A DNA stretch of 64,000 nt from a virus: UHGV virus genome UHGV-0229283; one strand, given 5' to 3'. The notes below the pieces were generated by a model. The model had not been told where the DNA came from. It saw only the letters and a program-made list of their open reading frames with translations, and did no database searches. Every line of letters begins with the position of its first letter. The first letter of the stretch is position 1. Made by a program: the position numbers and the translations under genes. Shown piece by piece: positions 4,385-18,186 of the stretch.

Positions 4385-4936
4385 TCACCTCCACGTTGCA
4401 GCAACAACAATATCAATAGCTCGTTCCCAGCACTCACCGAGAAGATTCAAACCACGCCAGTTGGTTGGGTCATCGATACGTGTGTCATATTCGTTTAATT
4501 TAACACCCCAGATGGCATCATAAGGGGAGGCTTCCACAAACTTACGACCAGCATCCCGATGCCCAAGCGCCGCTTCTAGAACAGACCTGTTGGCCTTCAT
4601 TTTCAATACAAGGCCTGAAGTCACAATATCCATTCTATTCTCTTCCCAGACGCTGTTGTCGAAACCTTTTACCTGACGACCAAGAGCTTTGGCCTCATTC
4701 GGGTTATCAACCGTAGCGATGCGGGAAGCAATTTCTTTGTCATCGAAGAGCATTGCCTTCTGGAACATCATGTAATGTTCTACAGTGAAAAACTCGTAAC
4801 CACCACAACGAATAGGAATAACCTGGCGGTAGTGATTACTGAACATATCTCGGTATGTGAAGAAGAAGACGTATTTATCAGTTACTCGCATCATTGCCTC
4901 AATGAAATGTTTTCTTACTTGGACAAGAACCAGCAC
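4385..4936 (-). CDS. NADAR domain protein (YbiA/DUF1768 family)
   Basis: FSNHYRQVIPIRCGGYEFFTVEHYMMFQKAMLFDDKEIASRI matches the NADAR core (SNF..., GxxYxxxEHxxQxxK). Confidence 0.6.
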   Translation of the reverse strand: MLVLVQVRKHFIEAMMRVTDKYVFFFTYRDMFSNHYRQVIPIRCGGYEFFTVEHYMMFQKAMLFDDKEIASRIATVDNPNEAKALGRQVKGFDNSVWEENRMDIVTSGLVLKMKANRSVLEAALGHRDAGRKFVEASPYDAIWGVKLNEYDTRIDDPTNWRGLNLLGECWERAIDIVVAATWR

Positions 4937-5123
4937 CTTCTTTCAGAACAGATTCTGTGCGATTACCGTCGCTGTAGATGCATACTTTAGAGCTTCCATC
5001 GGTGTATTCATCCACCAAAGAAAGTGTGTTGACTGTGGCAAATGCTGGGGAAGAGATTAATAAGAGACACATCACAACCACACCTGTGAGAACTCCAAAA
5101 AGATAGCTGCGAATACTCATCAT
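4899..5123 (-). CDS. small secreted/membrane protein
   Basis: 74-aa ORF with N-terminal hydrophobic signal-like segment (VLTGVVVMCLLLISSPAFA). Confidence 0.3.
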   Translation of the reverse strand: MMSIRSYLFGVLTGVVVMCLLLISSPAFATVNTLSLVDEYTDGSSKVCIYSDGNRTESVLKEGAGSCPSKKTFH

Positions 5124-5182
5124 GAGACTCCTTTATTAAGTTGAGACCCGATGATACTAATCACCGGGCCTTTTGTCAACCT

Positions 5183-6073
5183 TTACTTACCTGCTGGCAG
5201 ATTTACGAAAGGTACTGCACCGTTGCCACCCATAATGGTCGGGGTTTTACCGTCCCACTTGTTGATCGCTTCCAGTTGCATGATTTCAGGGTTCTTACGG
5301 AGAGCATCACCACGCAGTTGGATGGATTCTGCTTCACCTTTTGCCAGTGCTACTTTAGCATCTGCTTCACCCTGAGCTTGCAGTCGCTTAGATTCAGCTT
5401 CACCGCGAGCGGCTTCGATCTGTTTCTGAGCTTCAGCCTTGGTCTGCTGAATTTCGTTTTCACGCAGCAGCGCTTTCTGAGTCGCTTCGATCTTAGCGTT
5501 GATGGACGCAGTTACCTGAGGAGGATAACCAAGGTCATCGGTGTAAGACAGTTTCACAATAACGATGCCTACCGGATCAAGTTTCTGCTTCAGCGTCTTT
5601 GTCACTCGGTCCAGAAGCTGAGATTTACCATCACCAGCCAGAGTACCAATGTCCATTGTACCCGCTTCCTTGATCAACGCATCAGAGATATTCTGACGAA
5701 TGTTGACATCGGTAATCTCCTGGACGCCTTTACGGTAGGTCTGGAAGATCTTGGTAACCTTAGAGCGGTCAACGTAATACTCAACACCGATCTTCGCAGT
5801 AACCGTCATAGAATCTTTGGTCTGGAAGTTGAACGGCTGCTCGTAGTTGTTCAACTGGTTAAACGTCGGGAACTGATAGATCTCTTCGTTCCAGGTTAAC
5901 CAATACTTACCAACGCCAACTTCTTGCTGCTGAACGCCTTTCTCATCACCATACAGGTCAACCTTAACGCCCACATAACCCGCCGGAACAGTTGCACGTT
6001 CACAACCAGTCAGACCAATTGCACCCAGGGCGATCAGGCCAGCAAATACTACGCGTTTGATATTCTTAAGCAT
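5183..6073 (-). CDS. SPFH/band-7 (stomatin/prohibitin/HflC-like) lipoprotein
   Basis: N-terminal lipobox (LTGC), central band-7 region, C-terminal Ala/Glu/Gln/Lys-rich coiled coil (QKQIEAARGEAESKRLQAQGEADAK). Confidence 0.65.
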   Translation of the reverse strand: MLKNIKRVVFAGLIALGAIGLTGCERATVPAGYVGVKVDLYGDEKGVQQQEVGVGKYWLTWNEEIYQFPTFNQLNNYEQPFNFQTKDSMTVTAKIGVEYYVDRSKVTKIFQTYRKGVQEITDVNIRQNISDALIKEAGTMDIGTLAGDGKSQLLDRVTKTLKQKLDPVGIVIVKLSYTDDLGYPPQVTASINAKIEATQKALLRENEIQQTKAEAQKQIEAARGEAESKRLQAQGEADAKVALAKGEAESIQLRGDALRKNPEIMQLEAINKWDGKTPTIMGGNGAVPFVNLPAGK

Positions 6074-15627: not shown

Positions 15628-16424
15628 GTTTAGAACTTCGTCTGAACAAACTTGTAGTACCTGTCGATCACTTTACGTTCAAAGGTGGTGAAGAACAGGT
15701 TAAAATTGACATGGCGCATACCCCAAAAGGTGGTATTGGTTTCGTAGACATCACTGCGAAAATCAAAAACTCTACTGATGTTATGGCTCTTGCCATGTTG
15801 GTGGATGCATGTTCTCGCCTTGAAGGCCTTCATCATACTGCACAGTTCACTTTGCATCTACCGTACATCCCATATGCACGACAGGACCGCGTAATGCAAC
15901 CTGGTGAAGCGTTATCCATCAAAGTTTTCGCAAATATCGTCAACTCTCTTGGGTTTGACAAGGTCATTGTCGATGATCCGCACAGCGATGTCTCCGCCGC
16001 GTTGCTTAACAACGTTAAAATCCGTGGTCAGGACGCTCTTATTGCGGAATTCCATGAAGGTCTTGCCGGAAAAGATGTTGTTATCGTTGCCCCTGACGCC
16101 GGAGCACGTAAAAAAGCTCAGAAAGTTTCCGATCGACTTCGCCTTCCTCTGGTGGAAGCTGGAAAAGTGCGCGACCTGAAGACAAATGAAATTACCGGGA
16201 CTGCTGTTTTCGGTGATGTTGAAGGACGTGAGTGTGTTATTGTCGATGATATCTGCGATGGTGGTCGCACATTCATCGCCCTGGCACAAGCATTGAAGGC
16301 AAAAGGAGCAAAACGTGTTATTCTTTACGTAACTCACGGTATCTTTTCCTTCGGTAAAGAAGTTATCTACGAAGGCGGCGTTGATGAAATCTACGCGTAC
16401 CACGACTGGACCGAAAACTTTTAA
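15624..16424 (+). CDS. prs: ribose-phosphate pyrophosphokinase (PRPP synthetase)
   Basis: YARQDR motif, PRPP-binding loop (VIVDDICDGGRT), typical length 266 aa. Confidence 0.85.
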   Translation: MSLELRLNKLVVPVDHFTFKGGEEQVKIDMAHTPKGGIGFVDITAKIKNSTDVMALAMLVDACSRLEGLHHTAQFTLHLPYIPYARQDRVMQPGEALSIKVFANIVNSLGFDKVIVDDPHSDVSAALLNNVKIRGQDALIAEFHEGLAGKDVVIVAPDAGARKKAQKVSDRLRLPLVEAGKVRDLKTNEITGTAVFGDVEGRECVIVDDICDGGRTFIALAQALKAKGAKRVILYVTHGIFSFGKEVIYEGGVDEIYAYHDWTENF

Positions 16425-16485
16425 TTGACAAATGAATAAGTGGGCGTACAATCGCCCTATTAAACAAACAAAGGAGAAACAAAAC

Positions 16486-18186
16486 ATGCTTAATCAAGAA
16501 AGTCCTATCCTGTTCGCTGACTTTTACAAACCTTCACACATCTCCATGTATGATAAACGTTCTGAAATTGTTCAGGATAACATGACCCCTCGTAATGCGA
16601 AGCACTTCATCCACTTCGCCGATAACGACCAGCGTGTCATGTTTGCTGGACTTCAGGGATTTATTAAGTGGTTCCTTATCGACATGTTCAACAATAACTT
16701 CTTCAACCTCCCGAAAGAAGAAGCGGTTGCTGATTATCGTGAGGTTTGCGACTCCAGCATCGGCATTGGCATGGTAGAAACCTGGGGCTTTGAGGCTCTT
16801 CATGATCTCGGTTATCTTCCTCTGGAAATCCGTGCTCTTCCAGAAGGAACGCTTTCTCCGGTTCAGGTCACAATGTTTACAATCCAGAATACGCACCCGG
16901 ATTTTTACTGGTTGCCTAACTTCCTGGAAAGTGTGATCTCCGCAGAAACCTGGAAAACTATCACAACTGCAACGACGTTCTGGCAGTATCGCAAGCTGTC
17001 TGAAAAATGGGCTGCTGAGACCTGTGATAACAACGACCATGTTGCATTCCAGAACCACTGCTTCGCATATCGCGGTGAAGCTGGTACTCACGACGCAGCA
17101 CAGAGCGAATTCGGTCAACTGATCAACTCTATGGGTACAGACACTATCCCAGCGATTCTGTATGCTCGTCGTTATTACAACATGAAAGGCAAGTTCGTTG
17201 CTGGTTCTATTCCTGCATCTGAACACTCTGTTGCAACCACGAACATCGGTTTCATTGTTGGTCGTTTACAAGGTGAAAACCCGGACCTAACTCTGGACGA
17301 AGCGCGTTTCTTGGCTGAGGTTGAGTTCCTACGTCGTTACATCACAGAAATTTTCCCGAAAGGATTTGTTTCTTACGTGGCTGATAGCTATGATTTCTGG
17401 GCTATTATCACCAAAGCAGCAGCGATCCTGAAACAGGAAATCATGGCACGTGACGGTCGTGTTGTATTCCGTCCTGACTCAGGTGTTCCTGAGCACATCA
17501 TTGCCGGATATCGTATTTATGGTGAGTTTTCTGGAGAACAAGCTGAAGATTCCATTTACACTTGCCTTTATGATGAGAATCCTTCTCCATCAGAGGCCGA
17601 AGTTGTGAAGATGAATGGAAAATATTATTTTATTGATCGTAATGAACAGGATGATATTTGGAGTATCGGAGATGAACTCCCTCGCCACGAAGCCATTGGT
17701 GCTATTTCTTGCCTGTGGGAAATTTTTGGTGGTGAAGTTAACTCCAAAGGCTACAAGGTTCTGGACACCCACGTTGGGCTGATCTATGGTGATTCCATCA
17801 CTGTTGCTCGTGCAAAAGACATCTTTGAACGTCTGAAAGATAAAGGCTTTGCATCCAGCAATATCGTGTACGGTGTTGGTTCCTTTACCACCCAGTATAC
17901 AACCCGTGATTCACTTGGTATGGCTGTGAAAGCAACTGGCGCTGTGATTGATGGTCAGCAGATCATGGTTGTCAAAGAACCGAAGACTGACCTCGGTAAG
18001 AAATCTGCAAAAGGTTTCCTGAAGGTTGTTCGTGATGAGAATGGCGAACTGAAACTGGTTGACAATTGTCAGCTTGAAGAGGTACAGTCTGAAGATAATG
18101 AACTGCGTCGTGTGTTCTACAACGGCAAACTGATTGTCGATGAAGATCTGACAACGATTCGTGAACGCGCAGCCGCTCAACTGTAA
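16486..18186 (+). CDS. nadV: nicotinamide phosphoribosyltransferase (NAMPT/NadV)
   Basis: VADSYDFWAII matches the NAMPT active-site region (SDSYD); likely start at ATG 16486 with RBS aaaggagaaac; track start is 16432. Confidence 0.8.
   Translation: MLNQESPILFADFYKPSHISMYDKRSEIVQDNMTPRNAKHFIHFADNDQRVMFAGLQGFIKWFLIDMFNNNFFNLPKEEAVADYREVCDSSIGIGMVETWGFEALHDLGYLPLEIRALPEGTLSPVQVTMFTIQNTHPDFYWLPNFLESVISAETWKTITTATTFWQYRKLSEKWAAETCDNNDHVAFQNHCFAYRGEAGTHDAAQSEFGQLINSMGTDTIPAILYARRYYNMKGKFVAGSIPASEHSVATTNIGFIVGRLQGENPDLTLDEARFLAEVEFLRRYITEIFPKGFVSYVADSYDFWAIITKAAAILKQEIMARDGRVVFRPDSGVPEHIIAGYRIYGEFSGEQAEDSIYTCLYDENPSPSEAEVVKMNGKYYFIDRNEQDDIWSIGDELPRHEAIGAISCLWEIFGGEVNSKGYKVLDTHVGLIYGDSITVARAKDIFERLKDKGFASSNIVYGVGSFTTQYTTRDSLGMAVKATGAVIDGQQIMVVKEPKTDLGKKSAKGFLKVVRDENGELKLVDNCQLEEVQSEDNELRRVFYNGKLIVDEDLTTIRERAAAQL

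Follow-up and report, generated by a model that had tools for sequence, protein, structure and literature searches.

Five genes between positions 4,385 and 18,186 of the genome analysed here, coding for a Sir2-type sirtuin, a NADAR-domain protein, a MazG and a pair resembling PRPP synthetase (Prs) and nicotinamide phosphoribosyltransferase (Nampt), raise the question of whether they act together on NAD+, as an initial annotation had proposed, or belong to separate modules that lie side by side. The stretch of 64,000 nucleotides examined (the window) is 99% identical to phage KP12 and ~95% identical to Mydovirus KB57, and its source is a Klebsiella Mydovirus (Vequintavirinae). All five ORFs were found at or near the coordinates first assigned to them and all five domain calls lie above curated Pfam cut-offs, while the start of the NADAR gene and the reading of the sirtuin motifs had to be revised.

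The two gene sets had been described as facing operons, but they instead diverge from the intergenic region at 14948-15252, which carries back-to-back sigma70-like promoters, TTGACA-17-GATAAT at 14986-15014 on the + strand and TTGACA-16-TAGAAT at 14982-14955 on the - strand, each with a score of 11/12. The sign of the GC skew flips in this same region, from which both gene sets would be read divergently by the host RNA polymerase.

A predicted NARP1 operon

The + strand operon at 15253-18186 is, by homology, a NARP1 operon, with genes for a predicted ADP-ribose pyrophosphokinase (Adps, Prs-like, the first NARP1 enzyme; 15624-16424) and a predicted nicotinamide ADP-ribose transferase (Namat, Nampt-like, the second; 16486-18186). 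Characterised NARP1 homologues, namely genes 79-80 of phage Bas63 and those of SPbetaL1 and ICP1, convert ADP-ribose (ADPR) and ATP to ADPR-PP and then form NAD+ directly, and are active in a host that lacks pncC and nadR (bioRxiv 10.1101/2024.02.11.579819). By this chemistry, Adps would transfer the beta-gamma pyrophosphate of ATP onto the terminal ribose of ADP-ribose, and Namat would join the resulting ADPR-PP to nicotinamide to give NAD+ in a single step, thereby undoing the damage caused by NADase defences, with SIR2-HerA, DSR1/2, SEFIR, and type I Thoeris among them. The suggestion that a Prs and Nampt-type pair opposes NAD+-depleting defences was well founded, as the family of this pair has been shown to counter them. 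The companion proposal, that the pair rebuilds NMN and leaves a missing adenylyltransferase step to be supplied from elsewhere, is at odds with the characterised homologues; PRPP, NMN, and NMN adenylyltransferase would have no part in the proposed route, and no NMN adenylyltransferase is missing because NARP1 has no PRPP or NMN step.

The product of the Adps gene contains three Prs/PRT domains (Pfam) and is 42% identical to Bas63_0079 (E 1e-51) and 40% identical to ICP1 Adps. Residues of the Adps active site and PP loop are kept (criteria from PMC13586617): F18, R87, H121, D161, and K185 of ICP1 Adps correspond to F19, R86, H120, D158, and K181 here, and D212, D213, I214, C215, D216, and F221 to D208, D209, I210, C211, D212, and F217. 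The catalytic Lys is kept, Bas63 has the very same PP loop (DDICDGGRTF), and the protein is 266 aa long, lacks the Prs C-terminal module, and scores below every Prs equivalog cut-off in NCBIfam. Against the assignment, the two adenine-contacting residues F92 and F223 of ICP1 Adps are replaced by Met and Ala; a Met at the F92 position is also present in the Bas63 Adps, which is functional in vivo.

For the Namat gene, the start at 16486 is preceded by AAGGAG and can be retained, whereas the alternative start at 16432 has no such site. The reading frame from either start to 18186 matches the NAPRTase/Nampt-like Pfam domain (E 8e-27), and the best solved structures are those of SPbetaL1 Namat (9W5X/9W5W, E 7e-122), with human and Xanthomonas-type Nampt structures lower in the list at about 1e-48 to 5e-53. 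The protein is 40% identical to Bas63_0080 over its full length, including a long insertion common to both, and its identity to ICP1 Namat is likewise within 40-42%. Motifs defined for the family (PMC12774641) are found throughout: the SCH signature GSFTTQYTTRD at residues 465-475, an SCL of TPRNAKH that is Lys-type as in Bas63, and the catalytic ASEHSV, RPDSG, and GTDT motifs.

The order of the two genes, Prs-like and then Nampt-like, is that of the NARP1 systems of Bas63/JohannRWettstein, SPbetaL1, and ICP1, with which the window also shares the Adps PP loop, the catalytic Lys, and the Namat selectivity-clamp motif. Both proteins match phrog_12872, the profile of a fused Adps-Namat, and their KB57 and Mydo orthologues already appear in published NARP1 tables (Osterman et al.), whose supplementary entries record 'Namat within 10 genes: Yes' for a KB57 protein near-identical to the window Adps and 'Adps-associated' for the KB57 Namat homologue. 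One difference from known NARP1 systems is a 124-aa ORF (15253-15627, + strand) that is the first gene of the operon and overlaps the start of Adps by 4 nt. It belongs to phrog_8453, for which no function is annotated, and has only weak HTH/DnaD-like matches; neither Bas63 nor ICP1 has a homologue beside its NARP1 genes. The ORF contains neither a Macro nor a RyR domain, and the window operon comes without an accessory gene of the Macro (Adpp) or RyR (RyDEP) type.

A true PRPP synthetase and nicotinamide phosphoribosyltransferase would instead form NMN, which a host NMNAT or a phage NadR-like enzyme would convert to NAD+, in the manner of NARP2. Such a route could draw on the Prs and NAPRTase labels given to the two proteins by Pfam and broad NCBIfam models, and on in vitro results in which SPbetaL1 Namat, if given no ADPR-PP, can turn PRPP into NMN (PMC12774641). 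When both donors are present, however, Namat takes ADPR-PP only; ribose-5-phosphate yielded no product with SPbetaL1 Adps, and Bas63 NARP1 is independent of host pncC and nadR. The window Adps, for its part, has the Adps loop DDICDG and falls short of the Prs models in score and length, and the KB57 homologue of the window Namat groups with the Adps-associated Namats rather than with the Nmnat-associated Nampt clade. NARP2 of Vibrio phage KVP40 (NadV Nampt plus NatV/NadM Nmnat) likewise uses a Nampt-family enzyme to restore NAD+ during infection, but it proceeds from PRPP to NMN and hence requires an Nmnat, whereas the window homologue has the Namat clamp and an Adps partner. The search for an NMNAT that the initial annotation had called for gave a divided answer: no NMNAT or NadM-type Nmnat was found within the window, and KB57, Mydo, and other relatives encode a NadR-like NMNAT/RNK together with PnuC ~2-6 kb past its right end. 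The NadR-like gene of close relatives also speaks for a route through NMN. It and the PnuC gene are predicted counterparts, outside the window, of NARP3 (NadR-like plus PnuC) of phage Bas30/TrudiRoth, from which they differ in KB57 in being six small ORFs apart rather than adjacent. On balance, a route by way of PRPP and NMN is very improbable, and NARP1 is the preferred assignment.

The NADAR gene

The NADAR gene is encoded on the - strand at 4385-4894 (Pfam NADAR, E 1e-34). Its start most likely lies at 4891 or 4894 (MRVTDKYV, with GAGG upstream) and not at the GTG at 4936, giving a protein of 168 aa, as in the KB57 annotation and in NADAR^Bas60, to which it is 41% identical (E 5e-37). The segments VEHYMMFQK, LGRQV, and VEASPYDAIWG align with E43, R93, E125, D130, and W133 of the NADAR of structure 8BAU, and the catalytic E, K, and E are kept. 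NADAR^Bas60 neutralises DarT1/DarTG1, DarT1 being a DNA ADP-ribosylating toxin, and brings back phage growth on DarTG1 (PMC11257639). The earlier connection of NADAR with reversal of nucleic-acid ADP-ribosylation is borne out for the group to which the window protein belongs. The protein is a putative guanine-ADP-ribose DNA glycohydrolase that would counter DarT1-type DNA ADP-ribosylation in the role of an orphan antitoxin; this role, like that of NARP1, is assigned from homology to tested proteins at 40-42% identity. As with NADAR^Bas60 and AdfN, it is a stand-alone protein without a DarG1 N-terminal extension, keeps the catalytic residues, and is located among early genes, yet it comes from another phage subfamily than NADAR^Bas60 and is Glu-type, unlike the His-type AdfN of T4.

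The protein might alternatively be a small-molecule N-glycosidase whose substrates, instead of DNA, would be intermediates of the riboflavin pathway or soluble ADP-ribose derivatives or signals. It passes the cut-off of NCBIfam TIGR02464, 'riboflavin biosynthesis intermediates N-glycosidase' (125 versus 73.7 bits), its last strand is Glu-type as in the YbiA family, and Iyer et al. see soluble ADPr derivatives as the main targets of phage NADARs. Set against this are the neutralisation of DarT1 by its nearest tested relative and the hydrolysis of guanine-ADPr in vitro by every NADAR subfamily tested, with the caveat that substrate specificity in vivo varies even among members active in vitro (PMC11125620). 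We regard a small-molecule role as rather unlikely, and favor the DNA glycohydrolase.

The sirtuin and its predicted RNA-repair neighbourhood

The sirtuin gene (10139-10915, - strand; Pfam SIR2, E 3.5e-22) encodes a class-III-like fold of a phage-specific clade in which the GAGxSxxSGxRxFR, FYxxRR, TxNxD, catalytic HG, and PNVxFFGE motifs are present and invariant across the phage family. The protein had been called complete in its motifs, and this holds for the NAD-binding and catalytic-His motifs but not for the zinc-binding cysteines: the only three cysteines are scattered (41, 147, and 182), there is no CxxC pair or Cys4 site, and no zinc ligand is conserved across 37 homologues. To our knowledge, zinc-binding cysteines are universal in characterised deacylase sirtuins. 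The AlphaFold model (pLDDT 89.6) is closest in fold to CobB, Sir2-Af1, and SIRT5 (TM 0.74-0.85), and no match was found in PADLOC.

Next to the sirtuin gene are consecutive, partly overlapping - strand genes for a P-loop nucleotide/polynucleotide kinase-like protein (10926-11333; Pfam AAA_33 5e-9, phrog_505 polynucleotide kinase 4e-9, and also the RNA-ligase fusion phrog_8238), a cREC cyclic-phosphate processing receiver domain (11343-11687; Pfam cREC_REC 9e-14, above cut-off), a T4 Rnl1-type RNA ligase (11684-12604; Pfam RNA_lig_T4_1 5e-13, phrog_562 1e-63), and a calcineurin-like metallophosphoesterase (13112-13705; Pfam Metallophos 1.3e-6, phrog_547 phosphoesterase 9e-50). On the same strand, a variable slot holds the small MazG-type nucleotide pyrophosphohydrolase (7138-7497; Pfam MazG 2e-8, phrog_229 2e-40), and the sirtuin's neighbour, between it and MazG, is a DNA ligase (8826-10139; Pfam DNA_ligase_A_M and DNA_ligase_OB_2) that is ATP-dependent and therefore no NAD+ consumer.

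In genus and component set this arrangement matches the type 2 sirtuin neighbourhood of rV5 and Mydo phages (sirtuin, kinase, cREC, T4-type RNA ligase, phosphoesterase, and MazG), for which NAD-dependent RNA repair was predicted computationally (Iyer, Burroughs, Anantharaman, Aravind 2022; PMC9503650, section 3.7.3). MazG would belong to it more loosely: the corresponding KB57 slot holds the non-homologous 221-aa KB57_112, and in the window MazG lies at a distance from the sirtuin, with the DNA ligase and four small ORFs in between. The published prediction, which gene context suggests, is that the sirtuin may use NAD+ in the manner of KptA/Tpt1, stripping 2'-phosphates from cleaved tRNA before ligation. 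Such a context is not universal, as in Phapecoctavirus UP17 no RNA ligase lies within 8 kb of the sirtuin homologue, and that of the T5-like gmork has only a HAD phosphatase nearby. Two observations on the neighbourhood itself weigh against an RNA-repair role: between them, the kinase, ligase, and phosphoesterase might already be enough to heal and seal RNA, with no need for a sirtuin, and the sirtuin fold and invariant Y-x-x-R are traits of class III protein deacylases.

The sirtuin could be an ordinary NAD-dependent protein lysine deacylase of the CobB/SIRT5 kind, possibly a desuccinylase, reprogramming proteins of the host or the phage and having no connection with RNA repair. The top sequence and fold matches, the invariant catalytic His, TxNxD Asn/Asp, FGE loop, and class III FYxxRR, and the absence of an RNA-repair context from some lineages would all fit; yet identity to E. 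coli CobB, Sir2-Af1, and human SIRT5 is only ~27%, the score against NCBIfam CobB is far below the cut-off (110 versus 243 bits), the whole phage clade is without the zinc-binding cysteines, and in the window's lineage the gene is tightly linked to those for kinase, cREC, and RNA ligase. We give a deacylase some weight, while judging it somewhat unlikely.

Separate modules or one NAD+ cycle

A more ambitious possibility would unite most of these genes, with the sirtuin spending NAD+ to remove RNA 2'-phosphates, cREC and the metallophosphoesterase turning the by-product ADPR>P into ADPR, and NARP1 recycling ADPR and nicotinamide to NAD+, so that NARP1 would have a further use in NAD-consuming repair by the phage itself and the phosphoesterase would replace the Macro phosphatase Adpp of NARP1-AP. 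Every activity needed is predicted within 8 kb around a common promoter region, the chemistry resembles that of Tpt1/Poa1p and NARP1-AP, and no Macro gene was found beside the window NARP1 operon. The chemistry of sirtuin, cREC, and phosphoesterase is nevertheless pure inference for all members, genome size is a confounder of gene co-occurrence (PMC9503650), and sirtuin homologues occur in phages in which no NARP1 was seen nearby (UP17 and gmork). An integrated cycle is accordingly improbable. The proposal of one NAD+-centred gene set also finds no support in sirtuin and MazG, which fit the RNA-repair neighbourhood (PMC9503650) and not NAD salvage. Very probably, then, the region comprises NARP1, NADAR, and a predicted RNA-repair neighbourhood, separate and known Mydovirus modules that are divergently transcribed and do not form one pathway.

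NARP1, a NADAR of the DNA de-ADP-ribosylating type, and the sirtuin cluster with its predicted role in RNA repair have all been described already for this group of phages.

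Gene order and divergent transcription

Over positions 4385-18186 the DNA shows 99% identity with Klebsiella phage KP12 in nucleotide comparison, and about 93-96% identity with other members of Mydovirus (Vequintavirinae), such as vB_KpnM_KB57 and KNP2. The KB57 counterparts already carry names in RefSeq, namely NADAR family protein, nucleotide pyrophosphohydrolase, ATP-dependent DNA ligase, Sir2, ATPase, RNA ligase, phosphoesterase, ribose-phosphate pyrophosphokinase and nicotinamide phosphoribosyl transferase. The five ORFs that the initial annotation drew together as an NAD+-centred gene set all exist, with Pfam matches above curated cut-offs. 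Three are on the minus strand and encode a NADAR protein (E-value 1e-34), MazG (7138-7497; 2e-8) and a SIR2-type sirtuin (10139-10915; 3.5e-22), and two are on the plus strand, where three Prs/phosphoribosyltransferase domains were matched in 15624-16424 and NAPRTase in 16432-18186.

The two gene sets had been described as facing one another, but the minus strand carries its genes up to 14947 and the plus strand from 15253 onwards, and the arrangement is divergent. The gap of ~300 bp between them (14948-15252) holds two back-to-back hexamer pairs, each an 11/12 match to the sigma70 consensus, which argues that the sets are transcribed divergently, and a change in the sign of the GC skew coincides with the gap. 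Both sets are probably early and read by the host polymerase. A further sigma70-like pair, TTGACA-16-TACAAT (11/12), is found at 16425-16452 on the plus strand, between the stop of the Prs-like gene and the start of the Nampt-like gene, and is possibly an internal promoter. An Rfam scan of positions 1-20000 found no NAD+ or PRPP riboswitch upstream of this operon, two tRNAs being the only matches. Immediately downstream of the operon lies a block of 25 tRNA genes (19443-26678, plus strand); for one of them (24122-24191) ARAGORN gives an odd anticodon of two bases.

The Prs-like and Nampt-like pair as NARP1

The Prs-like gene (15624-16424, plus strand) and the Nampt-like gene (16486-18186, plus strand) are separated by 61 nt, and sequence comparison gives good support for reading their products as the NARP1 pair, Adps (ADP-ribose pyrophosphokinase) and Namat (nicotinamide ADP-ribose transferase). 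Genes 79-80 of phage Bas63 were likewise first read as Prs plus Nampt producing NMN, a reading that was then disproved (Osterman et al., bioRxiv 10.1101/2024.02.11.579819). In that study, the host pncC and nadR genes were dispensable for protection by the Bas63 pair against SIR2-HerA; Adps converted ADPR and ATP to ADPR-pyrophosphate (ADPR-PP) and gave no product from ribose-5-phosphate; and Namat joined ADPR-PP to nicotinamide to form NAD+, favouring ADPR-PP over PRPP. The route from Prs and NAMPT to NMN proposed for the present genes is accordingly replaced, as the tested homologues make ADPR-PP and then NAD+, and the window pair matches Adps plus Namat. Nor is an NMN adenylyltransferase step missing, as had been supposed, because the NARP1 pathway contains no NMN and bypasses it. 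The supplementary tables of the same study already include KB57 and Mydo proteins nearly identical to those of the window, with 'Namat within 10 genes: Yes' entered for the KB57 Prs homologue and 'Adps-associated' for the Nampt homologue (bioRxiv 10.1101/2024.02.11.579819).

Against Bas63_0079 the Adps-like protein shows 42% identity (E 1e-51), against ICP1 Adps 40%, and a PDB sequence search matched it to canonical Prs structures at only E ~1e-25 to 1e-27. The key residues of ICP1 Adps, taken from a structural study (PMC13586617), were mapped by three-way alignment with the ICP1 and Bas63 GenBank sequences. ICP1 F18, R87, H121 and D161 are kept as F19, R86, H120 and D158, the catalytic K185 as K181, and D212, D213, I214, C215, D216 and F221 as D208, D209, I210, C211, D212 and F217. 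Bas63 has the same PP loop, DDICDGGRTF. In place of ICP1 F92 stands Met, a residue shared with Bas63, and in place of F223 stands Ala. The protein ends at 266 aa, so that it lacks the C-terminal Prs module, a module that Adps proteins have lost.

For the Namat-like protein, whose start at 16486 is backed by the ribosome-binding-site context, the best solved structures in the PDB sequence search are 9W5X and 9W5W (E 7e-122), both of SPbetaL1 Namat, with human and Xanthomonas-type Nampt entries lower in the list (about 1e-48 to 5e-53). Identity to Bas63 Namat is 40% over the full length, including a long insertion common to both. The signature by which Lan et al. recognise Namat is present as GSFTTQYTTRD (residues 465-475, with F third and Y seventh), and the variable clamp loop, SCL, reads TPRNAKH (Lys third, then His), which is the Bas63 type. 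The catalytic core, defined by His245, Arg306, Asp215 and Phe189 in SPbetaL1 numbering, aligns intact as ASEHSV, FRPDSG, GTDT and HCFAYRG (FxxR).

Other readings were also weighed. A canonical Prs is suggested by the NCBIfam search to the extent that the protein passes the broad Prs subfamily model, but it fails every Prs equivalog cut-off (best score 122 bits, where 296 are required), the loop is DDICDGGRT rather than of the DDMIDTGGT type, and the C-terminal alpha11-alpha12 module is absent, all of which places the protein in the Adps clade as judged from its sequence. NARP2 was set aside on the presence of the Namat clamp, the Adps-associated status of the KB57 orthologue, and the lack of an NMNAT in the window, the only such enzyme of the relatives being NadR-type. 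NARP3 within the window was set aside because RNK-NMNAT and PnuC are absent from it by tblastn.

The search for an NMN adenylyltransferase proposed by the initial annotation thus returned none in the window, tblastn with the KB57 NadR-like and PnuC proteins giving no match there, and a NadR-like, NMNAT-type gene in relatives, outside the window. Besides KB57 and Proteus phage Mydo, at least 27 further relatives have NadR-like and PnuC genes, about 2-6 kb past the position of the window's right end; the NadR-like protein combines a cytidylyltransferase-like domain with AAA_28, and PnuC matches the transporter family at Pfam 6e-39. This pair resembles NARP3 (PMC13464706), and is probably also present in this phage just outside the window. 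KB57_159, a 'nucleotidyltransferase' considered as an NMNAT, is instead the RNA-repair nucleotidyltransferase RlaP. The 'NMNAT' and 'PnuC' that appeared under the match in OY978796.1 (vB_Kpn_K45PH128C2) were likewise rejected, as the feature table is out of register with the sequence and the named genes fall outside the window; the table is shifted by roughly 58-59 kb, which lays 'DNA polymerase', 'PnuC' and 'NMNAT' over the NADAR-to-Namat DNA.

The PHROG profile phrog_12872 (547 positions) matches Adps with its first half (profile positions 3-222) and Namat with its second (254-539), implying that fused Adps-Namat proteins exist in some phages. Among ORFs scanned between 3468 and 18186, no Pfam match was found to a Macro domain (the phosphatase Adpp) or a RyR domain (a glycosidase), the extra components of NARP1-AP and RyDEP-extended NARP1. 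Phage Bas62 (JohannJBalmer) carries three consecutive genes annotated as macrodomain protein, phosphoribosyltransferase (285 aa) and HAD-like protein (L007:21868-24083), a run that may be a NARP1-AP-type cluster. The 124-aa ORF at 15253-15627 has no homologue around NARP1 of Bas63 or ICP1 or at the other loci compared, and no PADLOC match.

NADAR and MazG

The start assigned to the NADAR gene (4385-4894, minus strand) was moved from 4936, as the ribosome-binding-site context favours 4891 or 4894, a choice that fits both the KB57 annotation and the N-terminal sequence of NADAR^Bas60, MRITDKYV. The protein scores 120 bits against a Pfam cut-off of 35 and is 41% identical to bas60_0111, that is NADAR^Bas60 (E 5e-37), which blocks the DarT1 toxin and lets phage grow again on DarTG1 hosts while leaving DarTG2 unaffected (LeRoux et al., PMC11257639). 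The distal-ribose residues of Phytophthora NADAR (8BAU), E43, R93, E125, D130 and W133, align with VEHY (in VEHYMMFQK), LGRQV and VEASPYDAIWG of the window protein, whose predicted catalytic Glu and Lys, in an SxEhhhQxxK-type motif, and acidic last-strand residue are those of the superfamily. This last-strand residue is Glu, which assigns the protein to the YbiA-like half of the superfamily, the half not associated with DarT. NADARs differ in their specificity in vivo (PMC11125620), and in NCBIfam the window protein likewise clears the threshold of the riboflavin-intermediate N-glycosidase domain. The best interpretation, by analogy with NADAR^Bas60, is a putative guanine-ADP-ribose DNA glycohydrolase that would serve as an orphan antitoxin, and the proposal that this NADAR reverses nucleic-acid ADP-ribosylation gains support from that tested homologue.

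Directly downstream of NADAR are a 162-aa ORF without a family match (3949-4437, minus strand) and an HNH_3/AP2 homing-endonuclease gene (3468-3956, minus strand), an arrangement over 3468-4437 that is unlike that of KB57. Between NADAR and MazG lies a gene for an SPFH/Band 7 family protein (5183-6073, minus strand; Pfam 1.5e-21), named 'lipoprotein' in KB57. MazG itself is a genuine 119-aa protein, but it can be tied only weakly to any NAD-related function. A DNA ligase and four small ORFs lie in the 2.6 kb separating it from the sirtuin, and the same position in KB57 is taken by KB57_112 (L001:8718-9383), a 221-aa PRA-PH-like protein without tblastn similarity to the window MazG; the slot is variable.

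The sirtuin, its predicted role in RNA repair and a possible NAD+ cycle

The sirtuin (10139-10915, minus strand) carries its NAD motif GAGFSAESGVRTFR at residue 9, TTNVDD at 92 and IHGY at 112, all invariant in 37 homologues, and across the phage family GAGxSxxSGxRxFR, FYxxRR, TxNxD, the catalytic HG and PNVxFFGE do not vary. Its description as a complete-motif sirtuin stands for the NAD-binding motifs and for the catalytic His, which aligns within IHGY, but not for the zinc cysteines, which are absent. The only cysteines are at 41, 147 and 182, with no CxxC, and C147 alternates with Val in homologues; no conserved cysteine pair was found in the phage family, which indicates that the structural zinc site, formed in the small domain of characterised sirtuins by two CxxC pairs, has been lost. 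This family counts over 200 phage homologues, most of them on contigs 110-153 kb long, and the window protein falls well below the NCBIfam CobB-family cut-offs (110 bits against 243, and 91 against 320).

The gene sits in a minus-strand cassette. An ATP-dependent DNA ligase gene (8826-10139) overlaps the sirtuin stop, and beyond the sirtuin lie genes for a P-loop kinase with similarity to polynucleotide kinases (10926-11333), the cyclic-phosphate processing domain cREC (11343-11687; Pfam 9e-14), a T4 Rnl1-type RNA ligase (11684-12604) and, two small ORFs after the RNA ligase, a calcineurin-like phosphoesterase (13112-13705). All six components described for the rV5/Mydo-type neighbourhood (PMC9503650), namely sirtuin, T4-like RNA ligase, cREC, nucleotide kinase, MazG and an optional calcineurin-like phosphoesterase, are found within 7138-13705 on the minus strand. 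A PDB sequence search gave no match for the kinase or the RNA ligase and only a weak one, 1xm7, for the phosphoesterase, and PADLOC had no match for MazG or the phosphoesterase. In KB57 a small ORF, KB57_106 (L001:12532-12756), lies between Sir2 and the kinase; it is missing from the window, where the sirtuin start and kinase stop are 10 nt apart (10915-10926).

Iyer et al. proposed that this sirtuin acts like KptA/Tpt1, using NAD+ to strip the 2'-phosphate left after opening of a 2',3'-cyclic phosphate end (PMC9503650). The homologues differ in context: the T5-like phage gmork has the gene beside a HAD_SAK_2 phosphatase (L012:8001-9671), the type 3 context of Iyer et al., and in Phapecoctavirus vB_EcoM_UP17 (L013:3918-8801) no RNA ligase lies within 8 kb and an Acb2/Tad1-like (Acb2/Tad1-hairpin) gene is about 4 kb from the sirtuin. 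The AlphaFold model (pLDDT 89.6) is nearest to the class III deacylases CobB, Sir2-Af1 and SIRT5 (TM 0.74-0.85), and the best 50 fold matches are all deacylase sirtuins. Because of this mixed context and the class III fold, a role in RNA repair is best regarded as tentative, well short of an even chance, and an ordinary deacylase is about equally likely. A defence-type SIR2 NADase (ThsA, DSR, SIR2-HerA) was rejected on the lack of a PADLOC match and on fold neighbours that are all deacylases. The class III sirtuins SIRT5 and CobB hold the acyl carboxylate with a Tyr-x-x-Arg pair, and the invariant Tyr-x-x-Arg of the phage protein might equally grip phosphate. A literature search turned up no experimental study of a phage sirtuin; the RNA-repair prediction dates from 2022.

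The idea of an NAD+-centred gene set survives in that genes for NAD+- and ADP-ribose-binding proteins are co-located, but these form several modules rather than one pathway: a well-supported NARP1, a NADAR of orphan-antitoxin type with a tested homologue, and a sirtuin RNA-repair cassette that is a published prediction. Every one of these modules is already described for this phage group. The sole idea that goes past the literature is chemically coherent, though we consider it improbable: the zinc-less sirtuin would be a KptA/Tpt1-like RNA 2'-phosphotransferase feeding NARP1 in a self-contained NAD+ cycle. Removal of the 2'-phosphate by the sirtuin would release nicotinamide and ADPR-1'',2''-cyclic phosphate, the neighbouring cREC protein and metallophosphoesterase would convert the latter to ADPR, and the divergent NARP1 operon would rejoin ADPR and nicotinamide as NAD+, in parallel with Tpt1/Poa1p and the NARP1-AP pathway. 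If such a cycle operates, tRNA repair would be paid for in ATP only, and a side effect would be resistance to the ADPR-1P-producing aRES defence without a Macro phosphatase.

For annotation, the 'ribose-phosphate pyrophosphokinase' and 'nicotinamide phosphoribosyltransferase' genes of Klebsiella Mydoviruses, phages considered as candidates for therapy, are to be read as NARP1, a broad counter-defence against NAD+-depleting immunity for which a host NMN adenylyltransferase is unnecessary. NARP1, NADAR and the relatives' NadR/PnuC pair give this lineage three or more counters, known or probable, to NAD- and ADP-ribose-based defences, which bears on its host range.
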